Virus record (IMG/VR): IMGVR_UViG_3300044706_000011
Location: 1-39,960 of that record
Length of the DNA stretch: 39,960 nucleotides
Source: a virus
Direction: 5' to 3' (one strand)
Of the stretch, positions 7,031-22,056 are shown in pieces. The translations under genes were made by a program, and so were the position numbers. The stretch's first letter is position 1. Each line of letters opens with the position of its first letter. The notes under the pieces were generated by a model. It was not told where the DNA came from and did no database searches. It worked only from the letters and a program-made list of their open reading frames with translations.

Positions 7031-7266
7031 GCCTTCTTGACCACCTCCGCGCCGCTCGCAAGTCCTTCACCATGTGGCTTAATGGCGTCTTGTTGATCGT
7101 ATATCCATTCGCCGACTCGATCATCTCGGGCATCCATGACCACCTGCCAGAACTCGCCCCGTACCTGCCAGCGAACGTGTTCCAAGCCGTAGGGCTGGCC
7201 CTTGTCATCTACAACATCGTGCATGGTGCTCATGCGGCTGCGAAAGCGGCGAAGGCGGCACAATGA
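7027..7266 (+). CDS. Putative holin (79 aa, two TMDs)
   Basis: TMDs WLNGVLLIVYPFADSIISGI and VFQAVGLALVIYNIVHGA with a Lys/Ala-rich C-terminus. ATGA overlaps on both sides. Confidence 0.7.
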   Translation: MSLLDHLRAARKSFTMWLNGVLLIVYPFADSIISGIHDHLPELAPYLPANVFQAVGLALVIYNIVHGAHAAAKAAKAAQ

Positions 7267-7721
7267 CGCCGGCCGACATGAAACCATCCGGGGCCTGCCG
7301 CGCGCTCGTGCGCCAGTTCGAAGGATGCCGACTGCAGGCATACCTAGATTCGGCTGGCGTCCCGACCATCGGCGTCGGCCACACTCGCGGCGTGAAGATG
7401 GGCGACCGCTGCTCTCAAGCTCAGGCCGATCTCTGGCTCACGCAGGATTTGGAGGACGCAGGAGCGGCCGTTGCGTCGCTCGTCAAGGTGCCGTTGACAC
7501 AGGGTCAGTTCGATGCACTGACGTCGTTCGTGTTCAACTTCGGCGCCAAGAAGTTCGGTACGTCTACGTTGCTAAGGCTGCTCAACAAGGGGGACTACAA
7601 AGGCGCAGCTGGACAGTTCAAGCTCTGGATTCACGCCGACAACAAGGTCGAGCCAGGTCTCGTGAAGCGCCGAGCAGCCGAAGAGCAGCTTTTTCTCAAC
7701 GATGTGCGGGTGACGCCATGA
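7263..7721 (+). CDS. Endolysin, GH24 T4-type lysozyme (soluble, no SAR/TMD)
   Basis: E-x8-D-x5-T catalytic triad in RQFEGCRLQAYLDSAGVPTIGVGHT. 152 aa. Confidence 0.9.
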   Translation: MTPADMKPSGACRALVRQFEGCRLQAYLDSAGVPTIGVGHTRGVKMGDRCSQAQADLWLTQDLEDAGAAVASLVKVPLTQGQFDALTSFVFNFGAKKFGTSTLLRLLNKGDYKGAAGQFKLWIHADNKVEPGLVKRRAAEEQLFLNDVRVTP

Positions 7722-8221
7722 CCGCGCTCGAGCGTCTCGCCATCGCCGCCTTCACGCTCGTGGCTATCCTGCTTGGCGCCGTCTTCGGCATGAAGCACTA
7801 CGGTACCGAACGATACGACGAAGGCTATGCGGCTGCCGTCGCTGCTGGCAAAGCACAACACGACCGTGACGCCGCTGCTGCACTCAAAACCGAATCCGAC
7901 CTGCGCGCCAAGTTGGCTACGCGGGACGCAGACGCCCAACGAAAGGAACAAGAACATGCTCAAGAACTCGCTGATGCTCAGCGCCGTGTGCGCGCTGGCG
8001 TTGATCGGCTGCGCTGCCCAGCCAGTCCCGTACAGCCCTCCGCCGCGGCCCCAGATCGACCCGTTGCCGCCGGATCTGCAGTTGACGGAGGAGGACCGGA
8101 AATTGTGCCGGAGGATGCTGCAGAGATTCTCGGCGACGGAGCGGCAGTTGCAAGCCTCGTGTCACGATACGAACGTGTGGTCGAGCGCTTCGAAGAGTGC
8201 CGGGCAGTGAATGCGAAGTGA
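7718..8221 (+). CDS. Rz: Rz-type inner-membrane spanin (i-spanin)
   Basis: ATGA overlap with the endolysin stop. N-terminal TMD LAIAAFTLVAILLGAVFG, then an Ala/Arg/Glu-rich coiled-coil region. Confidence 0.85.
   Translation: MTALERLAIAAFTLVAILLGAVFGMKHYGTERYDEGYAAAVAAGKAQHDRDAAAALKTESDLRAKLATRDADAQRKEQEHAQELADAQRRVRAGVDRLRCPASPVQPSAAAPDRPVAAGSAVDGGGPEIVPEDAAEILGDGAAVASLVSRYERVVERFEECRAVNAK
7956..8210 (+). CDS. Rz1: Rz1-type outer-membrane lipoprotein spanin (o-spanin), embedded in the +1 frame of Rz
   Basis: Signal peptide with lipobox LIGC (MLKNSLMLSAVCALALIGCAAQ). Pro-rich mature part. GAAAGGA SD upstream. Lies entirely inside Rz. Confidence 0.85.
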   Translation: MLKNSLMLSAVCALALIGCAAQPVPYSPPPRPQIDPLPPDLQLTEEDRKLCRRMLQRFSATERQLQASCHDTNVWSSASKSAGQ

Positions 8222-8224
8222 GGT

Positions 8225-8368
8225 TGTGGTGGACGGTGCTGTGTTCTCCGGCATTCCATCGCATGAGTTTGCACCTCATGGTCAGGACGGGACACTCATA
8301 GCCCCTATCAGGGTTGCGCCGCCTTGCGAGCGGCTTCCCTGGGCGCGTCAGCCCGCGCATTCACCACA
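8225..8368 (-). ncRNA. Module C: third copy of the conserved-termini / variable-core element (see 15783-15908 and 16094-16214)
   Basis: Left end tgtggtggacggtgctgtgttctccggc and right end gcgtcagcccgcgcattcaccaca match modules A and B (right end 22/24 identical to B). The termini form the UGUGGUG/CACCACA closing helix. Confidence 0.5.
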
Positions 8369-8435: not shown

Positions 8436-8458
8436 TGTGGTGCCGGACTTTCACCGGC
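8436..8458 (-). repeat. Isolated Y-type hairpin (tgtggtgccggactttcaccggc) related to the module left ends
   Basis: Same GGTG-GCCGG-N-CCGGC architecture as 8225-8252, 15783-15808 and 16094-16120. Confidence 0.4.
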
Positions 8459-8569: not shown

Positions 8570-8798
8570 GCTCCGCAAACGCCAGATTCCGCGAAAACTG
8601 AGGGGCATGTAAAAGGCTCAGTTCGTTAACTTTGCGGAGCGGATTTCACGCTAAAACCCGCATGGTTGACGCATTTCTATATGAGCTTAGAAGGCTGATG
8701 CTCTATCCAACTGAGCTATGGGCAGGGTGTTGATTTATAAAGGTTTTCAGCGATTTCTAAAACTTGCTGCGCTCCGCAAGTAGTAGCTTGCTCCGCAA
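8570..8798. repeat. Four GCTCCGCAA(A) repeats flanking the att core: candidate integrase arm-type sites
   Basis: Copies at 8570-8578 (+), 8632-8640 (inverted), 8771-8779 (+) and 8790-8798 (+). Two lie on each side of the tRNA fragment, next to the int stop. Confidence 0.55.
8684..8723 (-). other. attP core candidate: 40-nt fragment identical in form to the 5' part of a tRNA-Arg(UCU) (acceptor, D arm, anticodon stem and loop)
   Basis: Minus strand reads GCCCATAGCTCAGTTGGATAGAGCATCAGCCTTCTAAGCT. tRNA likeness stops after the anticodon loop and no T arm follows. Sits between the lysis genes and int. Confidence 0.7.
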
Positions 8799-8799
8799 A

Positions 8800-9828
8800 T
8801 CACCTCACCGGAGTCACGATTTTACCACGGCGTAAGTAGTGTTTTCGAGTGGTCTTGACGCTATCGTGGCCCAGCAGATCGCTGGCAGCCTGCTCGCCTC
8901 GTTTGATTGAGGTGTCGTCCGCTGCCTTCGCCCGCAGGTCGTAAAACCAGAATTCCTTGATGGCATCGGCAAGTTCTGGATGCTTCTCGGCTGCCGCTGC
9001 TTTTGCCGCGGTGAACTGGTCTCGCAGGATCTGCTTCGTCATCGGCTGGCCGTCCCGAACCATCAGAATCTGTGCATGGACAGTCTTATGGTTGGCCTTC
9101 CGCGCCTTTATGCGCTCGATCAGGTCGGCCAACTCTCCGACTATGGCAATCCGCAGGCGCTTGCCTGTCTTGCCCTGTGCAACCGCCAATGTCCCGTCTT
9201 CAATGTCGTCCATGCGTGCCTTAAGGGCGTCGCCCGGCCGTTGTCCGGTCAGGTATGAGAAATCCATAGCTTCCTGCAGTGCTTCGCTAGCATGGGATCG
9301 CACGGCGGCGTACACCTCATCTGTGATGTACACCTCCCGCTTCTTGAGAGAGTGTCCATCGACTCCTCGGCACGGATTTTCCGCATCAGTGTACCCCCAT
9401 CGACGAGCGCGGTTCCAGAGGGCCGAGAACAGCCGCTTACAGCGATTCGCCGTGGTCGGTTTGTCCTTGTGCTTCTTCAGGAAATCATCGATTGTGATAG
9501 GCTTGATCTGGCTGAGAGAAAATTCAGCGAATTCGGCCTGCAGGTGCTTCATATCGGACTTGTGCGTGGCCTGGGTACTGGTAGCCAGCGTTGGCAGCAC
9601 TTCAGCAACATATTTAACGATCACGTCGCCAAATGTCGGCTCGGCTGTCTTTTCGATCTGGTTCAGCTCGGCATACCGGCGCAACGCCATGAAATAGTCA
9701 TCGCCAAGAGGGATTTCTTTGCGAGGCTTTGCCCCGGTATCGAAGTAGTAATAGACCCTCCCACTGCGCTGCACACGTTTGCGCATGTGCTTCGGCAGGT
9801 TCATATGTTTTGTTGATTTGCGTCCCAT
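8800..9828 (-). CDS. int: Tyrosine integrase (site-specific recombinase)
   Basis: C-terminal HDLRAKAADD ... LLGHDSVKTTRKHYLRR (R-H-R-Y type motifs). ATG at 9828 lies 4 nt after the xis-like stop; the ORF-track start at 9867 is a TTG. Confidence 0.9.
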   Translation of the reverse strand: MGRKSTKHMNLPKHMRKRVQRSGRVYYYFDTGAKPRKEIPLGDDYFMALRRYAELNQIEKTAEPTFGDVIVKYVAEVLPTLATSTQATHKSDMKHLQAEFAEFSLSQIKPITIDDFLKKHKDKPTTANRCKRLFSALWNRARRWGYTDAENPCRGVDGHSLKKREVYITDEVYAAVRSHASEALQEAMDFSYLTGQRPGDALKARMDDIEDGTLAVAQGKTGKRLRIAIVGELADLIERIKARKANHKTVHAQILMVRDGQPMTKQILRDQFTAAKAAAAEKHPELADAIKEFWFYDLRAKAADDTSIKRGEQAASDLLGHDSVKTTRKHYLRRGKIVTPVR

Positions 9829-9832
9829 TTTC

Positions 9833-10036
9833 TTACAGTATTCGTGCGACAGGCTTTGGCTCGGCAACCATCTGTTTGCGCCCTTCGATCGCAGCAGATG
9901 GCACTACCGGCTTGCCTGCTGCATTCACGTGGAACGGCAAGCCCATACGGCGCAGAGCTTCTATCTGCTTCGACTTGATCTTACGGCCGGTCAGTTCGGC
10001 CAGTTCATCCGGCGTCAAAAACATAGCCATCTTCAT
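9833..10036 (-). CDS. Excisionase-like small DNA-binding protein (DUF4224-type)
   Basis: MKMAMFLTPDELAELTGRKIKSKQIEALRRMGLPFHVNAAGKPVV pattern. Immediately upstream of int. AGGAAGGA SD. Confidence 0.7.
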   Translation of the reverse strand: MKMAMFLTPDELAELTGRKIKSKQIEALRRMGLPFHVNAAGKPVVPSAAIEGRKQMVAEPKPVARIL

Positions 10037-12586: not shown

Positions 12587-12852
12587 GCTTCGCTCCCACG
12601 TTGGCCGTTCTCATTGCTGGCGGCCGGACCTTTGGCACGCACGCGGAAGTGTCCCGCTTTTGTTTTCTCGTTGTTGGCGTGTTCCTCGTTACAGAACAGA
12701 AGTGCGCGTCCGTAGCGCATGTCCATGACGCCATACATGCCAGCGTCGTTTGCCCAGCCCGCAAGCTCGAACGCAAATTGCGGCACGTGTGGCAGAGTGA
12801 CTTCCTTCTTTTCGCCGCAATGCCAGCAAACGAGATTTGCGATGATGCTCAT
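12583..12852 (-). CDS. Hypothetical protein (89 aa)
   Basis: AAGGAG SD. CWHCG motif. ATGA-type overlaps. Confidence 0.65.
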   Translation of the reverse strand: MSIIANLVCWHCGEKKEVTLPHVPQFAFELAGWANDAGMYGVMDMRYGRALLFCNEEHANNEKTKAGHFRVRAKGPAASNENGQRGSEA

Positions 12853-13400
12853 TCGGTTTCTCCTTCCTTGCTGGCGGCCGGGGCTTCGGCCTTGATCGCG
12901 CGCTCCAACATGTCAGTGATCAGGATGAATGCCGCCTCCGCCTGTGCGGGCGTGCTGTAGTGCAGAGTGAAGCGGCCTTCCAGATCGTCTGGTCCGCTCG
13001 CGAAGAAGCCGCTTTCGTAGCCTTCGCTCAGCTTTGCTAGCGCCTCGTTGCGCGCCTCTTCGCTGTACGAGAGGCGAACCTCGCGCTCGATGGCACGTGC
13101 GAATTTCAGCCAGCCTGGAGGCAATCTAGTCGGGACCTCGTACGTGATCGATGTCAGGGCCGAGAGAATCTGCTCGTCGGTCAGTTCGGCCTGCGCATGT
13201 ACTGCTGGCACGGCATCGTCAGACGGCAGCACCTTCGCAATCATCTTCAGCGTGCCAGCGACTACGTACTGCTGCGGGTCGGTGTTAGGGATTGCTGCCA
13301 CTGCTCCGTCAGTGCACATGTAGGCAAGCCACGCTTCAGCAGCATTTGTCACGTTCTGAACGAGCTTCTTGCGCATCTCGTTGAATTCTTTTTCGCTCAT
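12849..13400 (-). CDS. Hypothetical protein (183 aa)
   Basis: Clean ORF with purine-rich SD and high third-position GC. Confidence 0.7.
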   Translation of the reverse strand: MSEKEFNEMRKKLVQNVTNAAEAWLAYMCTDGAVAAIPNTDPQQYVVAGTLKMIAKVLPSDDAVPAVHAQAELTDEQILSALTSITYEVPTRLPPGWLKFARAIEREVRLSYSEEARNEALAKLSEGYESGFFASGPDDLEGRFTLHYSTPAQAEAAFILITDMLERAIKAEAPAASKEGETE

Positions 13401-13757: not shown

Positions 13758-14053
13758 GGCCGCTTGCCCCATGCCGGCTGTCGCAGGGCCGCACGCTGCT
13801 TCGCCAGTTCTTCGATCTCGGCCACGCACGCGTCCATCAGCGTGAGAGTGTTGCGGCATCCTTCCAGCAAATCCTCGACTCTCTCTGGCACGTCGTCGCT
13901 ATCCGGCTGCATCCGGCGAAGAATCTGGGCTGCAGAGGCACCAAGTTGACCGCACAGCTTCGACAGGGCGAGCTTGGCATCCTCATGGGCGCCACGAACT
14001 GTCGAATAGCGGCCACGTGCGATCATGAGTTCATCGTCGGTCAGGTCGATCAT
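13754..14053 (-). CDS. Hypothetical protein (99 aa)
   Basis: ATGA overlaps with erf and with the next gene. Confidence 0.65.
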   Translation of the reverse strand: MIDLTDDELMIARGRYSTVRGAHEDAKLALSKLCGQLGASAAQILRRMQPDSDDVPERVEDLLEGCRNTLTLMDACVAEIEELAKQRAALRQPAWGKRP

Positions 14054-14667
14054 GCTTGCTCCGCGAGTTGTTGGTTGAGCTGTGCCTTGCGCTCGCTGGC
14101 GTGCTTCTGGAGCGCTTCTTTGCTGGCCGGGTACATGGCCACTGCTGCTTTCAGGTGCTCGCCGATCTCTTTGATCGTAGCGGCACCCTTGATGGCGTTG
14201 ACAGCATTCGCAAGGCCAACGCTGTCAGGCTGCGCGCGCACTTCGTGAACCTCGGCATCTGCATCGATGCTGGTTTCCTCGGTCGGGATGCAGAAGGCTT
14301 GGAATGCTGCGTACTTGTATGCTGCGCTCATCGCCTTGTTCGTGGCTTTGTCGCCGCTATCCATCGCTTCGCCGAACGTGGACACAGTGTGCTTGCTGCC
14401 ATCTTCAGCGCTCACCAGATCGAACTCGGCTTGCACCGTCACGTAGAACAGCGCGTTGCCCTTGGCGTTCGTGCGCTCAACGCATTCGCGCTTGATGCAA
14501 CGAGGCAGAACGCACAGCTTGTGCTTGGCCAGTAACGGAGCCAGAGCGTTGTACACAGCGTCGATGCCGCGGAAGTTGAAGCCCTGCGCCTGGTTTCGGC
14601 TGTCTTTGGAGATACCGCGTGCAGCCAGTTCGGCGGCGACTTCTGCGATTGCTTGGTAAACTTTCAT
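14050..14667 (-). CDS. erf: ERF-family single-strand annealing recombinase
   Basis: GFNFRGIDAVYNALAPLLAKH ... GEAMDSGDKATNKAMSAAYKYAAFQAFCIPT matches conserved ERF (P22 Erf family) blocks. Confidence 0.85.
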   Translation of the reverse strand: MKVYQAIAEVAAELAARGISKDSRNQAQGFNFRGIDAVYNALAPLLAKHKLCVLPRCIKRECVERTNAKGNALFYVTVQAEFDLVSAEDGSKHTVSTFGEAMDSGDKATNKAMSAAYKYAAFQAFCIPTEETSIDADAEVHEVRAQPDSVGLANAVNAIKGAATIKEIGEHLKAAVAMYPASKEALQKHASERKAQLNQQLAEQA

Positions 14668-15408: not shown

Positions 15409-15624
15409 TCATGGTTGCACCTCGACAGGCTCGATCAGGTCGAATTCAGACTCCTCGCCATGGAACCAGTACGAGCCAGTAGGGCTGAAAATAGACGCGC
15501 GGTCGCCCCAATACGCGATGATGTTGTCGCTACCAGCAGCCGACGCATAGACTGTGGCTACATCGCCGCCACGCATGCGCCAAGTGCTGCCAGGCTCAAA
15601 GGTCAAATTGTTCTCGGATGCCAT
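15409..15624 (-). CDS. Hypothetical protein (71 aa)
   Basis: AGGAG SD 8 nt upstream. First CDS downstream of the ORF-free island. Confidence 0.65.
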   Translation of the reverse strand: MASENNLTFEPGSTWRMRGGDVATVYASAAGSDNIIAYWGDRASIFSPTGSYWFHGEESEFDLIEPVEVQP

Positions 15625-15668
15625 CGCTGCTGCTCCTGTTCTGTCCGGCGCCGCCGGCGGTTGGTTTA

Positions 15669-15692
15669 TTGGTGCCGGTTACGCTCTCCGGC
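15669..15692 (-). repeat. Y-type hairpin copy (minus sense GCCGG-AGAGCGUAA-CCGGC-ACCA) near the 3' end of the island
   Basis: Plus strand ttggtgccggttacgctctccggc resembles the module left ends. Confidence 0.4.
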
Positions 15693-15782
15693 GCCGCGCA
15701 GGTACTACAAGGCTTGGGTTTCGCCTCCCTGTCGGCCGTTTTGCCTTCGTTGCGGTTCAACTGAACGGACCGAACTCTCCGC

Positions 15783-15908
15783 TGTGGTGGCCGGTGCTGA
15801 TCTCCGGCTTATCTGGTCCATCCGTTACGGCCCCTTCTGCTCATTTGGGGTATGGCTTCACCCACTATTGCCAGCATCACGATCGCATCAGCCTGCGAAT
15901 TCACCACA
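15783..15908 (-). ncRNA. Module A: about 126-nt element with conserved inverted termini and a unique core
   Basis: Left end tgtggtggccggtgctgatctccggc (15783-15808), right end gcatcagcctgcgaattcaccaca (15885-15908). Minus-sense UGUGGUG/CACCACA closing helix. GCCGG-N9-CCGGC hairpin whose loop AUCAGC complements the upstream GCUGAU. Confidence 0.55.
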
Positions 15909-15910
15909 GA

Positions 15911-16014
15911 ACAAGGGGCTGGATTCGAACCAGCGACCTCCTGTAACATCGACCACCTGTTTTCACCCGGGCAGATCGCCAATGTCAGGCGCCCTACCTC
16001 TGGGCTACCCTTGC
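15911..16014 (-). ncRNA. tRNA-shaped RNA element (104 nt) with acceptor, D and T arms but a 50-nt rod in place of the anticodon stem-loop
   Basis: Minus sense reads GCAAGGG-TA-GCCC-AGAGGTA-GGGC-G-[50 nt]-AGGTC-GCTGG-TTCGAAT-CCAGC-CCCTTGT. The acceptor extends to 12 bp (15906-16019). No anticodon loop can be drawn and no CCA is encoded. Confidence 0.7.
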
Positions 16015-16093
16015 TCTGTAGGGGCTCCTTACGGGAGCCAATCGGCGGCACTAACTTTCTCCGCCCGCCACAACAGTTATCGATTGCTGCTCG

Positions 16094-16214
16094 TGTGGTA
16101 GCCGGTGCTGAATTTCCGGCATACGGATCCTTATCCGCTTGTTCCCGTCCCTGACTACCCACCGTTTGGAACCGTGGTCCGCCAGTTGGCGCATCAGCCT
16201 GCGCATTCACCACA
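16094..16214 (-). ncRNA. Module B: second copy of the conserved-termini / variable-core element
   Basis: Left end tgtggtagccggtgctgaatttccggc (16094-16120), right end gcatcagcctgcgcattcaccaca (16191-16214; 23/24 identical to A). The closing helix contains a G.U that would be an A-C mismatch on the + strand. Confidence 0.55.
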
Positions 16215-16290
16215 TGACGAGCACCTGTCCGGGCGTCCCCTTTAAGACAGGCCGCGACCAAGTGCCGCGTTCCTAGGATTGCTCGTCATG
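16213..16290 (-). ncRNA. 78-nt element closed by a perfect 11-bp helix, directly 5' of module B (same position as the tRNA-shaped element relative to module A)
   Basis: Minus sense CATGACGAGCA ... TGCTCGTCATG encloses two hairpins (CGCGG-CACTTGG-TCGCG and CCTGTC-N16-GACAGG). Confidence 0.5.
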
Positions 16291-16811
16291 TGATGACTGG
16301 CTTACGACCAGTCAGGCGAGCTATTCCCGTAATTCGCGCCGTAGTCTTTCGGCGTTGCAGCGGTTTGATGCATCCATGTGTCGATGCTTATTCGTGGCCA
16401 ACACATGGCGCACATCACGGGCTTTTCCCCTCGCGCTACCGAAGGATTGAAAGGTGCAACGCGCCACATTTGTTCAGTGCCGTTCTGTTCTCGGCCGTCA
16501 GGGCATTTCAGATCCCGCTGCGTCGATTTCCTGACCCGACATCAGGGCAAGCCTTGCGTTGTACGTCGGTGCAAGGCGATCCGTTAGCCGTATTACTTAC
16601 CCCGGCTCCGGGCGATTAGGTGCAGGCTCTTCCCCTGCTTGGCGATGCTCACCTGAGTCATCGCGTTGCCCGCGCTGCCACTTGGCTGCGGGCCGGCGGC
16701 CGACCAGGCGTTAGTTCATATATGCACTATGGGATTTGCTGTAACTTCGCATATCGCCTCCTGTCAGTAGTTGAGTCCTCGTTCATCGCTTGGGACCATC
16801 GCGCAAAAACT

Positions 16812-17015
16812 TCAGTCGTGTTTACTACTCATCCTTTGCATGAGGGCTCTGTGAATTTCAGTCCCATTGCTCCTGTACGGGATATCAAACTGCGCCTCCC
16901 ACTCTCGACGCCTGCGGTCGTCCTCCATCGCATACGCAACCGTGTACGCATCGCCTTCGTCGTCCTCGCGCCGCTGACGTGCGCTGTAGCCGAAGTCGTC
17001 GTAGTGGCGAGACAT
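16812..17015 (-). CDS. Hypothetical acidic/basic small protein (67 aa)
   Basis: The ATG at 17015 overlaps the upstream stop (TGATG). Last CDS before the ORF-free island. Confidence 0.55.
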   Translation of the reverse strand: MSRHYDDFGYSARQRREDDEGDAYTVAYAMEDDRRRREWEAQFDIPYRSNGTEIHRALMQRMSSKHD

Positions 17016-17122
17016 CAGAAGCAGCCCAGCAGGAACAGAACGCCGACGATGATCACGGCAACTGAGAAGACAGTTATGCCGTCTACGATCAGGTCGTGTG
17101 CGGTGTAGCGGTTGTGTTCCAT
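17015..17122 (-). CDS. 35-aa single-TMD peptide (MEHNRYTAHDLIVDGITVFSVAVIIVGVLFLLGCF)
   Basis: GGAGG SD 8 nt upstream. Starts 2 nt after the upstream stop. Confidence 0.5.
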   Translation of the reverse strand: MEHNRYTAHDLIVDGITVFSVAVIIVGVLFLLGCF

Positions 17123-17124
17123 GG

Positions 17125-17487
17125 TCAGGCCTCCGACACACCTAGAGCTGCACGTGCTTCCTCGGGCCAGTAGGTGCTTTCGTTCCAATTCGGCGTTTCG
17201 CTTTCCATGCGAAAGCACGGGATTTCTTCGCCATCAATTTCAAGAACTGGAGTGGCCCACGTAGACGCAAGATATGTGTACGTGTTCTCTTTCGGAACCG
17301 GAATACCATCGCGCCAGATCGTGCCCGAGGTCCATTCCATGTCGCTCGACAGGCCGGCGACGGCCTCAGCCGGATTGCGCTCAGCAATGATCTGTGCGGC
17401 CTTGATCCAGTCGAAGACCATCCGCTCACGGAAGCGGTTCGCTTCGCCCATTGCAAATGCTGTCAGTGTGTCCATTCTGTTCTCCAT
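17125..17487 (-). CDS. Hypothetical protein (120 aa; alternative ATG at 17475)
   Basis: Clean ORF. GGAGAA precedes the second ATG. Confidence 0.7.
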   Translation of the reverse strand: MENRMDTLTAFAMGEANRFRERMVFDWIKAAQIIAERNPAEAVAGLSSDMEWTSGTIWRDGIPVPKENTYTYLASTWATPVLEIDGEEIPCFRMESETPNWNESTYWPEEARAALGVSEA

Positions 17488-18720: not shown

Positions 18721-19143
18721 TCATCTCCTCATGCTGAGCAAGTCATCGATGTCCATGCTCTCAATAACAAGCCGAACTGCGTCGTCTATGAGTTCCCGTT
18801 GATCGGAGTTCGCCAGACGGTAGACCGCAAGAAGACGGATCTCCGTTGAGGCTTCCTCAAGAATCTTTCGTAGAGCCACTGTTTGGGTGGTCTCTACGAG
18901 AGACACCTCCTGATGTTCAACGTCCATCCATCCTTCCGGCAGCCCCAAAGTCTTCTCAATCTCTCTACATGATCCACTGCTGATCACTCGTGGCTTACCA
19001 GTCACGGAATGAGTAGAGGCGTTCAACCATTGGCTCACCTGGGACTGGCCCTTTTGTAGCCGATCAGCGAGCCCCTGCACTCCTCCAGATTCATCTCGTA
19101 GGCGTCGTAAGTTATCGCGCCGTACATCTTCGATTTTTTTCAT
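18721..19143 (-). CDS. cI: CI-like repressor with N-terminal HTH and no S24 peptidase domain (140 aa from ATG 19143; GTG 19161 possible)
   Basis: GLADRLQKGQSQVSQWLN HTH-like segment. Divergent from the cro-like gene across operator-bearing DNA. The predicted PRM start coincides with ATG 19143. Confidence 0.8.
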   Translation of the reverse strand: MKKIEDVRRDNLRRLRDESGGVQGLADRLQKGQSQVSQWLNASTHSVTGKPRVISSGSCREIEKTLGLPEGWMDVEHQEVSLVETTQTVALRKILEEASTEIRLLAVYRLANSDQRELIDDAVRLVIESMDIDDLLSMRR

Positions 19144-19149
19144 TTTTGC

Positions 19150-19178
19150 ATTAGACGCCACGTTGGCTAAATGTTGAA
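19150..19178 (-). promoter_or_regulatory. PRM candidate: TTCAAC-17 nt-TCTAAT (minus strand), predicting a leaderless cI mRNA
   Basis: -35 at 19178-19173 and -10 at 19155-19150. The ATG at 19143 is 7 nt after the -10. Confidence 0.5.
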
Positions 19179-20795: not shown

Positions 20796-21010
20796 TTGCC
20801 TACGAAGCCATCGGCCCCAATGCTAACGGCGATTTCATCATCGCTTACCCGACGCCAGGCGCTCCTCATGTCATGACGGCGGCTGGCTGCGCGTCGAGCA
20901 AGGACGCAGCAGAGCGCGAATGCGCACGTCTGAACGAAGCCCAGGTTGTCGACAAGCGCGAAGCGTTGGTTCGCGACGCAAACATGATCGTCCGGGACAA
21001 GGAGCGCTGA
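20792..21010 (+). CDS. Hypothetical protein (72 aa)
   Basis: ATGA overlap. Precedes the replication initiator. Confidence 0.6.
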   Translation: MIAYEAIGPNANGDFIIAYPTPGAPHVMTAAGCASSKDAAERECARLNEAQVVDKREALVRDANMIVRDKER

Positions 21011-21012
21011 CG

Positions 21013-22056
21013 GTGGCAACTCCCCAGCTCGAGGACGGTCACGTCCGAATTGCAAACGAACTGCTCGAGGCGATTCTCGGCTTCGGCTTTTCGCAGCGCG
21101 AGCTGCTTGTACTGCTGACCATCATCCGCAAGACGTACGGCTTCAACAAGAAGGAGGATGACATGTCTGCCTCGCAGATCGGCGCCGTATGCGGCATGGC
21201 CCGTCAGCACGTCACGACGACCTTGAACGCGCTGGTGGCCCGCAATGTCATTGCGAAGCGTCCGGGCCAGTTCGGAATGATTATCGGCGTGCAGAAGGAC
21301 CACTGCAAATGGGTGTCGATCGAGCAAATGAAAGGTGCAGCAGATAGTCCCAAATCGGGACTAGTCCAAGATCGGGACATGTCCCAAATCGGGACAGATG
21401 GTAGTCCCGAATCGGGACAGGTCGATAGTCCCAAATCGGGACACACAAAAGACAACCTTCCAAAAGACAACCACCAAAAGACAAATTCTTGCGCTCCGAC
21501 GTCGGGCAGCGAGGCTGGAAGCGAAACCCTAGCAGACCGCAAAGGTCGGGCCATGATGGGCGAACGCTTTGAGCGCTTCTACGCTGCCTACCCTCGCAAG
21601 AAGTCTCGAGCAGCGGCCGAAAAGGCGTTTGCCAAGCTGAATCCGGACGATGACGCCCTCGAGCAAATGCTGACGGCTATTGCTCGCACTCTGGCATCTG
21701 GCGAGTGGGCCGACCCGAAGTTCATCCCCTACCCGGCTACCTGGCTGAACGCTGGTGGCTGGATGGACGAAGTGCAGACCGCTTACCAGCCCGAGGAGGT
21801 CGAGGTCATCGAGGCGTTCAACGGCGCCTTGGGTGAGCAGCTGGGCGTCGTCACCCTGACGCCGTTCATCGCCAACCGTGCTGCCGCCATCCGCGACTTC
21901 CGCACGTTCTCGAGCAAGCCGGGTTTCGTTGAGCGCTTCTTCCCTTGGGTGCGCGACAACGCCAAGTTTCCGCCTAGCGTCGGTTTTGATTGGGTCATCA
22001 GCCGCCATGGTTACGCCAACCTGACCAGCGGTCAACACAGCAGAAAAGCAGCATGA
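21013..22056 (+). CDS. Replication initiator, lambda O-like (phage_rep_O N-terminal domain) carrying the origin iterons
   Basis: LEDGHVRIANELLEAILGFGFSQRELLVLLTIIRKTYGFNKKED ... winged-helix pattern. GTG start with AAGGAG SD. ATGA overlap with dnaB. Confidence 0.8.
   Translation: MATPQLEDGHVRIANELLEAILGFGFSQRELLVLLTIIRKTYGFNKKEDDMSASQIGAVCGMARQHVTTTLNALVARNVIAKRPGQFGMIIGVQKDHCKWVSIEQMKGAADSPKSGLVQDRDMSQIGTDGSPESGQVDSPKSGHTKDNLPKDNHQKTNSCAPTSGSEAGSETLADRKGRAMMGERFERFYAAYPRKKSRAAAEKAFAKLNPDDDALEQMLTAIARTLASGEWADPKFIPYPATWLNAGGWMDEVQTAYQPEEVEVIEAFNGALGEQLGVVTLTPFIANRAAAIRDFRTFSSKPGFVERFFPWVRDNAKFPPSVGFDWVISRHGYANLTSGQHSRKAA
21347..21485. repeat. Origin of replication candidate: five 15-bp palindromic iterons GTCCCAAATCGGGAC plus three CAAAAGACAA repeats
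   Basis: Iterons at 21347, 21364, 21381, 21404 and 21428 (spacing 17/17/23/24), followed by an A-rich repeat tract. All lie inside the O-like gene. Confidence 0.8.

Follow-up and report, generated by a model that had tools for sequence, protein, structure and literature searches.

Several described RNAs share one or another property with the element reported here. The engineered scaffold of Ponchon and Dardel reportedly lets a foreign RNA replace the anticodon arm of a transfer RNA (tRNA), and the cell processes and stabilizes the product. In the purine riboswitch and in the Alu domain of the signal recognition particle (SRP) RNA, two short hairpins on a three-way junction touch each other in cis through their loops. 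The put RNA of HK022 and the put-like RNA of HK639 are structured phage RNAs that lie just downstream of early promoters in lambdoid phages without N. ROOL and GOLLD are phage RNAs next to tRNAs and are reported to oligomerize (PMC12286853). Here we report three copies of an RNA module, A, B and C, in a 39,960-nucleotide (nt) stretch of viral DNA (positions 1 to 39,960 of IMG/VR record IMGVR_UViG_3300044706_000011; hereafter, the window). In each copy a scaffold of 52 nt carries an insert between two of its hairpins. Judged from the sequence, the copies are three minus-strand genes of a large unannotated family of phage structured small RNAs. It is strongly supported that the element is a real structured RNA, very widespread and, as far as our tools show, undescribed.

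The scaffold has an identical plan in every member of the family. A closing helix of 7 base pairs (bp), P1, is followed by the linker AAU and by a 4-bp hairpin, P2, with an 8-nt loop (L2, AGGCUGAU). Then comes the insert, which can have any sequence and any length, followed by A(A/U) and a 5-bp hairpin, P3, with a loop of 9-11 nt (L3, AGAUCAGCA). P3 runs without a linker into the 3' strand of P1. Six bases of the P2 loop pair with six bases of the P3 loop, a contact that we call the kiss. Each loop starts with two purines and ends with a single one, and the six bases that pair lie between them; the two loops are complementary to each other and not to themselves. The unpaired junction bases are near-invariant: AAU directly follows P1 in 131 of 165 sequences, and A occupies position -2 before P3 in 93 of 98. 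The module thus resembles the engineered scaffold as a tRNA-shaped clamp carrying an insert. That scaffold, however, is man-made on a real tRNA body, whereas the clamp described here is a distinct natural family known from sequence.

The fold is supported by extensive covariation. We examined 113 sequences chosen by their unpaired loop anchors alone, so that pairing was not a selection criterion. Standard pairs fill 93.9% of the cells, compared with 31-45% when the partners are slid by 1-3 columns, and changes on both sides are found at 16 of 16 pairs; none of 500 shuffles matches the observed values. The closing helix and the 3' hairpin, for which the first-pass annotation of the window had suggested such a check, pass it. 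When P1 is left free in the scan it takes more than 20 versions, always complementary (for example GAUGGUG/CACCAUC, CGGUCUG/CAGACCG, GAUAGUU/AACUAUC and GGAGAGG/CCUCUCC), and P2 has the compensatory versions GCGU/ACGC, GUGC/GCAC, GCAA/UUGC and GAGC/GCUC. The commonest state of the kiss is GCUGAU/AUCAGC. It is replaced by GUCGAU paired with AUCGAC or UUCGAC in loci L131, L152 and L147 and by GCUAA/UUAGC in the L154 group, and one cargo family occurs with two kiss sequences (L113 versus L131 and L152). Exceptions with one or two mismatches are found in L133, L135, L169 and L170. The first-pass annotation had proposed a pseudoknot between the loop of the 3' hairpin and a conserved 5' GCUGAU; the two do co-vary, in at least three states, but GCUGAU is not single-stranded and sits in the loop of the P2 hairpin. 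Members also contain G.U pairs that would be A-C on the opposite strand (CGCCACA, CGCCGCA, GUCGG/CCGGC and, in the closing helix of copy B, UACCACA), which supports an RNA read from the minus strand. Both the minus-sense reading and the G.U pair of B had been proposed before and agree with these results.

All coordinates given below are plus-strand positions in the window, and the modules are read 5' to 3' from the minus strand (Table 1). A and B have the RNA 5' end UGUGGUGAAU(U/G)CGCAGGCUGAUGCG and the RNA 3' end GCCGGA(G/A)AU(U)CAGCACCGGC(C/U)ACCACA in common, while their interiors of 68-74 nt do not align. By shuffling of the window, the expected number of occurrences is 0.00 for the 24-nt end pattern and 0.04 for the 18-nt one. 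This bears out the earlier description of two copies with shared ends and unalignable interiors, which had missed a third. End-pattern scans reveal copy C, more diverged and in the same orientation as A and B, at 8225-8368. A covariance model, R1, was built from 39 members from other loci, with no window sequences in training. It finds exactly three family matches in the window, A, B and C, all on the minus strand; the next-best score is 9.7 bits (E 1.1), for the plus strand at C. Minimum free energy (MFE) folds of all three copies give the closing helix and the 3' hairpin, as well as the second hairpin GCGC-AGGCUGAU-GCGC (P2), with the conserved 5' GCUGAU as its loop. A sequence-free descriptor (P1, P2 and P3 plus a kiss of at least 5 bp) proves unspecific, with 44 matches in the window and 30-43 in shuffles, and we therefore claim no additional degenerate copies.

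The family is found far beyond this window. Scanning IMG/VR for an exact pattern that fixes 19 bases at the RNA 5' end yields at least 89 distinct modules of 64-214 nt, and scans anchored on other parts of the module add many further contigs; altogether the family is present in more than 200 IMG/VR contigs. BLAST with the two ends finds 209-251 GenBank phage records, both temperate and virulent, with hosts that include Klebsiella, Escherichia, Pseudomonas, Burkholderia, Erwinia and Aeromonas. R1 members also occur in mEp460, an Stx2a phage, HC6, Magnus, D6, JL22, phiEt88 and ep3. At least 1387 of 5426 complete E. coli genomes carry a module, with 1-5 copies each (median 1); the copies lie on chromosomes, in prophages, and on P1-like plasmids of 90-115 kb, and are never annotated. 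A single cargo variant alone is present in 1637 genomes. More than 120 species genomes match the 18-nt piece AAUGCGCAGGCUGAUGCG exactly, and about 70 of these matches are complete modules. These matches belong to Gamma-, Beta- and Alphaproteobacteria, along with a few in metagenome-assembled genomes of other phyla that may be mis-binned. In Rfam 15, no family overlaps the modules at the gathering score over the whole window, nor A or B at E <= 10 over 15500-17300, where the sole tRNA match is the tRNA-shaped RNA of Table 1. Over 17 related loci no Rfam family overlaps the modules, and only tRNA, C4 and isrK matches appear elsewhere in them. Literature searches by exact sequence and by keyword returned no description of the element; a 2023 catalogue of 10,006 phage candidate RNAs may list the family anonymously.

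In contrast to the ends, the core between P2 and P3 is free. It ranges from 12 to 373 nt (median 72), and the cores make up 74 to about 98 unrelated sequence families, so that the conserved ends and free cores first described for A and B are a property of the whole family. The first-pass interpretation of the modules as a scaffold with variable cargo is thereby supported; the scaffold may be recognized by a protein or an RNase, as was suggested along with it. In the smallest member (L093, 64 nt) just a 12-nt linker stands between the two hairpins. The insert is unrelated between members, close relatives included. One such case is contig IMGVR_UViG_3300044656_000070 (L018), which is syntenic with the window, at about 75% identity across int and the early-left region. 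Its only module, of 214 nt, has the 5' end of B, the 3' end of A and an unrelated core. The segment 1892-2157 of L018, with its one module, corresponds to 16214-15621 of the window, with B, the tRNA-shaped RNA and A; neither a tRNA-shaped gene nor a copy C is found in L018. Since the ends are identical and the core unrelated, the cargo must turn over much faster than the ends. The comparison suggests recombination between the conserved ends, by fusion and deletion or by cargo exchange.

Two cargos resemble host RNAs. The core shared by L077, L089, L092 and L133 is identical at 26 of 29 positions to nt 254-282 of E. coli 16S ribosomal RNA (helix 11), with two base pairs swapped compensatorily, and the core of L115 holds a tRNA-like fold with the T-arm GGUUCGAUUCC. 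These cases hint that cargos might be decoys or mimics of host RNAs. In a BLAST search against an E. coli rrn operon only the helix-11 cargo family matched, and we rejected the idea that the scaffold itself is related to ribosomal RNA.

The modules are found at the sites of phage tRNA genes and often occupy a slot of a tRNA array. ARAGORN predicts a tRNA within 300 nt of the module at 23 of 168 loci, on the same strand in 23 of 23, and a T-arm motif lies within 45 nt upstream of 13 of 168 modules (background 0.2%). At eight loci a tRNA begins 5-11 nt past the module, which is array-type spacing, and in L031 a tRNA ends 3 nt before a module that occupies a slot of the array. Modules are found inside the tRNA arrays of virulent phages and of P1-like phages, in the latter after tRNA-Asn and tRNA-Thr, and the module of phiEt88 lies 13 nt before tRNA-Phe. 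Tandem modules also occur, three in JL22 (L399, 2501-3310) and two in D6 (L125, 2501-2965). Coding sequences are annotated antisense over modules in these two phages ("plp" in JL22 and gp76 in D6) and may be mis-calls.

In the early-left operon, A and B share 1.1 kb without coding sequence (about 16715-15625), upstream of an open reading frame (ORF) of 71 amino acids and recombination genes. In RNA sense the order is an 80-nt hairpin element, B, a 79-nt spacer, a tRNA-shaped RNA, A, about 90 nt and a P3-like hairpin. The tRNA-shaped RNA ends 2 nt before A. Its acceptor, D and T arms are normal, but a hairpin of 42 nt, inserted between positions 29 and 39 of the Rfam tRNA model, replaces the anticodon loop, so that it cannot decode; its MFE fold is a cloverleaf with one long arm. 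This RNA is a genuine tRNA scaffold, one arm of which is oversized, and in that respect the window holds a natural likeness of the engineered construct. ARAGORN calls no tRNA gene anywhere in the window, this one included. A comparable tRNA-like gene of 98 nt lies directly 5' of the module in L107.

The 80-nt element directly upstream of B is very stable for its composition (-41.2 kcal/mol, z = -6.7), and its 20-nt arms are 90% complementary. Within its 5' arm is CAUCACA, which mimics the P1 3' strand, and the helix can therefore extend over the 5' strand of P1 of B; an alternative pairing between the two is possible. The first-pass annotation had given both elements that precede a module closing helices of 11-12 bp. 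We find 7 bp before A, and 10 bp, extendable to about 20, before B. The architecture that it proposed, a stem element followed by a module, does recur, since a perfect 9-bp helix abuts the 5' end of the module in 31% of cases, compared with 4.7% of control positions (6.6-fold). At enteric loci (e.g., L044, L068, L027, L005 and L089) a second element with conserved ends and a free centre lies about 75 nt upstream of the module, with the ends CACAACAGGUAAGAGCAUUG...CAGUGCUCUUUCCGUUGUG; some copies are tRNA-like or have a T-arm. The boxA-like UGCUCUUU is part of its 3' arm, which overlaps the beginning of P1; as at B, the helix of this element can reach into the P1 5' strand.

Two hairpins, at 15669-15692 and 8436-8458, had also been listed as relatives of the module ends, but neither scores with R1 as a family member. 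The full module of L018 ends at the position that corresponds to the first of them (the P3-like hairpin of Table 1), and the next 54 nt are 92.6% identical; it may be what is left of a module 3' end. Another 400 nt or so of non-coding sequence, at 16300-16715 (-), precede the RNA array and hold no predicted promoter or Rfam match; ahead of them is a 13-codon mini-ORF with a strong Shine-Dalgarno sequence (about 16751-16710). Prediction of sigma-70-type promoters finds none in the A/B region or in the C region.

Module C is placed beyond the integrase gene and an attP-like tRNA fragment, which is the place of the sib retroregulator in lambda. The fragment (about 8686-8735, minus strand; GCCCAUAGCUCAGUUGGAUAGAGCAUCAGCCUUCUAAG) lies at a distance of 70-110 nt from the integrase gene, corresponds to the 5' half of a tRNA-Arg(UCU)-like gene and is probably the attP core; a tRNA 5' half rather than a 3' half is unusual for a phage. 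On the opposite strand, C begins 4 nt past the stop codon of an ORF of 339 amino acids (7202-8221, plus strand), which matches Rz-like spanins solely in its C-terminal 130-160 residues.

Table 1. RNA modules, neighboring elements and phage genes in the window
Feature	Position	Strand	Length	Remarks
Module A	15783-15908	-	126 nt	R1 73.7 bits, E 8.5e-19
Module A, P1 and AAU	P1 5' 15908-15902; P1 3' 15789-15783; AAU 15901-15899	-		
Module A, P2	15898-15895 with 15886-15883; L2 15894-15887	-		L2 AGGCUGAU
Module A, core	15882-15809	-	74 nt	
Module A, P3	15808-15804 with 15794-15790; L3 15803-15795	-		L3 AGAUCAGCA
Module B	16094-16214	-	121 nt	R1 69.4 bits, E 1.4e-17; fold z = -2.6
Module B, P1 and AAU	P1 5' 16214-16208; P1 3' 16100-16094; AAU 16207-16205	-		P1 3' strand UACCACA; one G.U pair
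Module B, P2	16204-16201 with 16192-16189; L2 16200-16193	-		
Module B, core	16188-16121	-	68 nt	
Module B, P3	16120-16116 with 16105-16101; L3 16115-16106	-		L3 AAAUUCAGCA
Module C	8225-8368	-	144 nt	R1 47.4 bits, E 2.4e-11; fold z = -2.9
Module C, P1	8368-8362 with 8231-8225	-		
Module C, P2	8358-8355 with 8346-8343; L2 8354-8347	-		L2 GGGCUGAC
Module C, core	8342-8253	-	90 nt	
Module C, P3	8252-8248 with 8236-8232; L3 8247-8237	-		GCCGG/CCGUC, one mismatch; L3 AGAACACAGCA
tRNA-shaped RNA between B and A	15910-16014	-		Rfam tRNA 51.8 bits
Hairpin element directly upstream of B	16213-16292	-	80 nt	10-bp closing helix
P3-like hairpin	15666-15692	-		GCCGG-AGAGCGUAA-CCGGC, then ACCAA; no R1 match
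Integrase	8800-9867	-		PHROGs
Erf	14050-14667	-		PHROGs
cI-like repressor	18721-19161	-		PHROGs
O-like replication gene	20920-22056	+		PHROGs

Comparison of the sequences, we consider, demonstrates how the module folds and kisses, that its insert is free, which strand it is read from, how the family is distributed and that its genomic niche is tRNA-like. As for the role of the modules, we tentatively propose, giving it a little less than an even chance, that they are a tRNA-mimicking scaffold which is excised by tRNA-maturation enzymes and displays a variable cargo. The module would be built like a tRNA: P1 would stand for the 7-bp acceptor, P2, after its short linker, for a 4-bp D-like arm, the insert for a variable domain at the anticodon position and P3, stacked on the acceptor, for a 5-bp T-like arm, and Watson-Crick pairs would replace the contact between D-loop and T-loop. 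The tRNA-maturation machinery would release each module from the long early-left transcript, with RNase P cutting at the 5' end and exonucleases trimming the 3' end as far as P1. This would leave a stable RNA in which the clamp shields the cargo domain and displays it, and the cargos might act as decoys for host factors or defenses. We propose excision by this machinery because of the tRNA-like geometry and because the modules occupy tRNA-gene slots beside tRNA scaffolds with oversized arms; decoys are suggested by cargo that turns over fast and occasionally mimics host RNAs. The geometry found agrees with tRNAs and their mimics (viral tRNA-like structures, the tRNA-like domain of tmRNA, YrlA and mascRNA). 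The 7-bp P1 is continuous, linker-free, with the 5-bp P3, the 4-bp P2 with its 8-nt loop follows the short linker AAU, the hairpin loops are in contact and the variable domain stands in place of the anticodon arm. The genes, too, are found in tRNA clusters, at tRNA spacing and on the same strand. Position -1 is U in 94 of 165 sequences (57%), which fits the preference of RNase P but proves nothing.

Several observations weigh against this proposal. The modules are seen neither by ARAGORN nor by the Rfam tRNA model. Their loops, AGAUCAGCA and AGGCUGAU, have no T-loop (UUCRANY) or D-loop (GG) consensus, the contact consists of six Watson-Crick pairs and not of the tertiary pairs between T-loop and D-loop, there is no anticodon arm, and after P1 we find a weak A/C bias and no conserved CCA. 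For these reasons we rejected the idea that the module is itself a tRNA. P1 often exceeds 7 bp; in many beta- and alphaproteobacterial members it forms part of a helix of about 13 bp, unlike an acceptor stem. Only about 14% of modules are near real tRNAs. The 6-bp kiss between hairpins of 4 and 5 bp on one junction may be strained in cis, and the covariation cannot tell pairing in cis from pairing in trans. The strong conservation of AAU, L2 and L3 across three proteobacterial classes suggests a specific partner. We file the family among tRNA mimics, outside every known family. A bolder form of the proposal seems to us doubtful: proteobacterial phages would carry an RNA display cassette, in which a tRNA-shaped clamp hijacks host tRNA processing and stability for fast-evolving decoy or mimic cargos that act on host factors or anti-phage defenses and are swapped by recombination at the invariant ends.

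Many modules directly follow pL, have boxA on one side and an N-like gene on the other, or precede holin genes, and such placement would also suit a cis-acting leader of long antiterminated operons, acting on RNA polymerase or on the transcript and tolerating the insert. Possible roles are put-like antitermination, action against Rho, a 5' stabilizer or insulator, or a processing site that uncouples nut from the N messenger RNA. In mEp460 and the Stx2a phages the module is the first element after cI/pL and is followed by a hairpin and U-run or by the boxA-like CGCUCUUUUUACAA. In a further class of lambdoid phages the module, which the extra helix GGCUUUGG/CCAAAGCC clamps, has an rrn-type boxA on one side and the start of an N-like arginine-rich gene on the other, and in phiEt88 it lies between Q and a holin gene. 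Terminator-like sites are enriched 4-fold within 110 nt downstream of modules, and a universal partner, RNA polymerase for example, would agree with unpaired bases that are conserved from one host class to another. We nevertheless judge a leader, though the main rival of the proposal, unlikely. Modules also lie inside the tRNA arrays of virulent and P1-like phages, they form tandem arrays (in JL22, in D6 and, as A and B, in the window), and module C, after int and attP, is outside any leader. Some copies have a promoter and terminator of their own, like free-standing small RNA genes, the promoter having an extended -10 whose end is 7 nt upstream of P1 and the intrinsic terminator lying 4-40 nt past the module. 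The validated RNA antiterminators differ as well: put consists of two stem-loops, with no closing helix, kiss or variable insert, and is absent from tRNA arrays. A put-like position just past an early promoter is found for the modules of mEp460-like phages, not for those in tRNA arrays or for C. R1 finds no member in HK022 or HK639, the early region of HK022 lacks the motif and the putL-like sequence of HK639 is unrelated, and we rejected the module as a put RNA.

The pairing of L2 with L3 might instead be intermolecular, joining separate molecules, or adjacent modules of a single transcript, head to tail into dimers, rings or chains that bear cargo, much as phi29 pRNA forms rings and ROOL and GOLLD form kissing-loop cages. 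The loops are complementary to each other and not to themselves, and their purines and pairing bases have the classic layout of kissing loops; phi29 pRNA, too, has a pair of complementary loops within one molecule. Neighboring hairpins as short as these may find a kiss of 6 bp hard to form in cis, and tandem copies share their loops (A and B in the window; JL22). ROOL and GOLLD, which as phage RNAs near tRNAs resemble the modules, are reported to oligomerize; the module is far smaller. The covariation, however, fits cis pairing equally well. Contacts in cis between short hairpins have precedents in the purine riboswitch and the SRP Alu domain, and the kiss of copy C is weaker, at 4 bp. We regard assembly in trans as quite unlikely.

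The purine riboswitch and the 5' domain of SRP Alu RNA resemble the module in having a closing helix and two short hairpins with paired loops. From this resemblance one might read the module as a three-way-junction aptamer of the "tuning fork" type, binding a ligand or a protein in a pocket of AAU and A(A/U) and tolerating the insert. P1 with two parallel hairpins in loop-loop contact and the near-invariant junction bases would suit such an aptamer. The genes downstream are unrelated, though, and no consistent expression platform is seen; our search for a partner protein links no gene consistently to the module, as the ORFs that follow 153 modules form many small clusters unrelated to one another (N-like, holins, early genes). 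Some modules belong to tRNA arrays and others are genes on their own, a junction strand with as much as about 370 nt inserted would be unusual for an aptamer, and the kiss, at 6 bp, is longer than in the known loop-loop junctions and kissing assemblies, which have no insert in the junction strand. An aptamer is very improbable.

A DNA-level element, either a miniature inverted-repeat transposable element (MITE) or repetitive extragenic palindromic (REP) sequence, or a pair of attC-like recombination sites bracketing cassettes, is largely refuted: its inverted 7-bp termini and the cores swapped between identical ends in the window and L018 (which homologous recombination at the ends could yield) are outweighed by compensatory changes and G.U pairs in three helices and the loop-loop contact, by copies always co-oriented with tRNAs, by a median of one copy per E. 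coli genome, in prophages and phage-plasmids and not chromosome-wide, by about 98 unrelated interiors and by the lack of target-site duplications. The first-pass annotation, which saw no such duplications and argued against a recently transposed MITE, was right on both counts, and the host REP family that it named as an alternative is set aside as well; none is seen in the flanks of the window modules. Integron attC was rejected in addition because the termini TGTGGTG/CACCACA vary freely elsewhere and the cores are too short to code. We find no attC consensus (GTTRRRY core) and no intI, and the only integrase in the window is an ordinary phage tyrosine integrase. What the modules share with these elements is conserved inverted ends and a free center swapped between relatives; they differ in acting at the RNA level and in being low-copy and phage-specific.

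Other named RNAs were considered and set aside. The best match to YrlA (RF02553), at 15965-16067, reaches 17.5 bits (gathering score 69; E = 2.2) and falls on the tRNA-shaped region, not on a module. Pas sRNA, described in a preprint, is unrelated to the family. The M3 RNA of phi80, presumably an RNase P substrate, is annotated as an oop homologue and located elsewhere, and R1 has no match in phi80. The N leader of phi80 (L174, about 12800-12960, minus strand) has just before the N Shine-Dalgarno sequence a diverged UGUGGUG...ACCACA element, UGUGGUGAAGGG...CCCACCUACCACAUCGCCAAAGC, in the same place as the module in other N-encoding phages. R1 does not score it.

If confirmed, the family would be a major class of unannotated phage RNA genes, present in about one quarter of complete E. 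coli genomes, with Stx-converting phages and P1-like phage-plasmids among the carriers; in several records, protein genes have been called antisense over the module, such as "plp" in the P1-like JL22. The kissing-loop junction, proven by covariation and with a free insertion site, is a clean problem in RNA structure, and the family may be a natural precedent for the tRNA-scaffold trick of RNA engineering. Should the cargo-display reading be true, the modules would represent a system of a new kind, comparable at the RNA level to integron cassettes or anti-defense gene islands. The family raises the question whether the roughly 100 unrelated structured RNAs in phage early and late transcripts are weapons against host factors.

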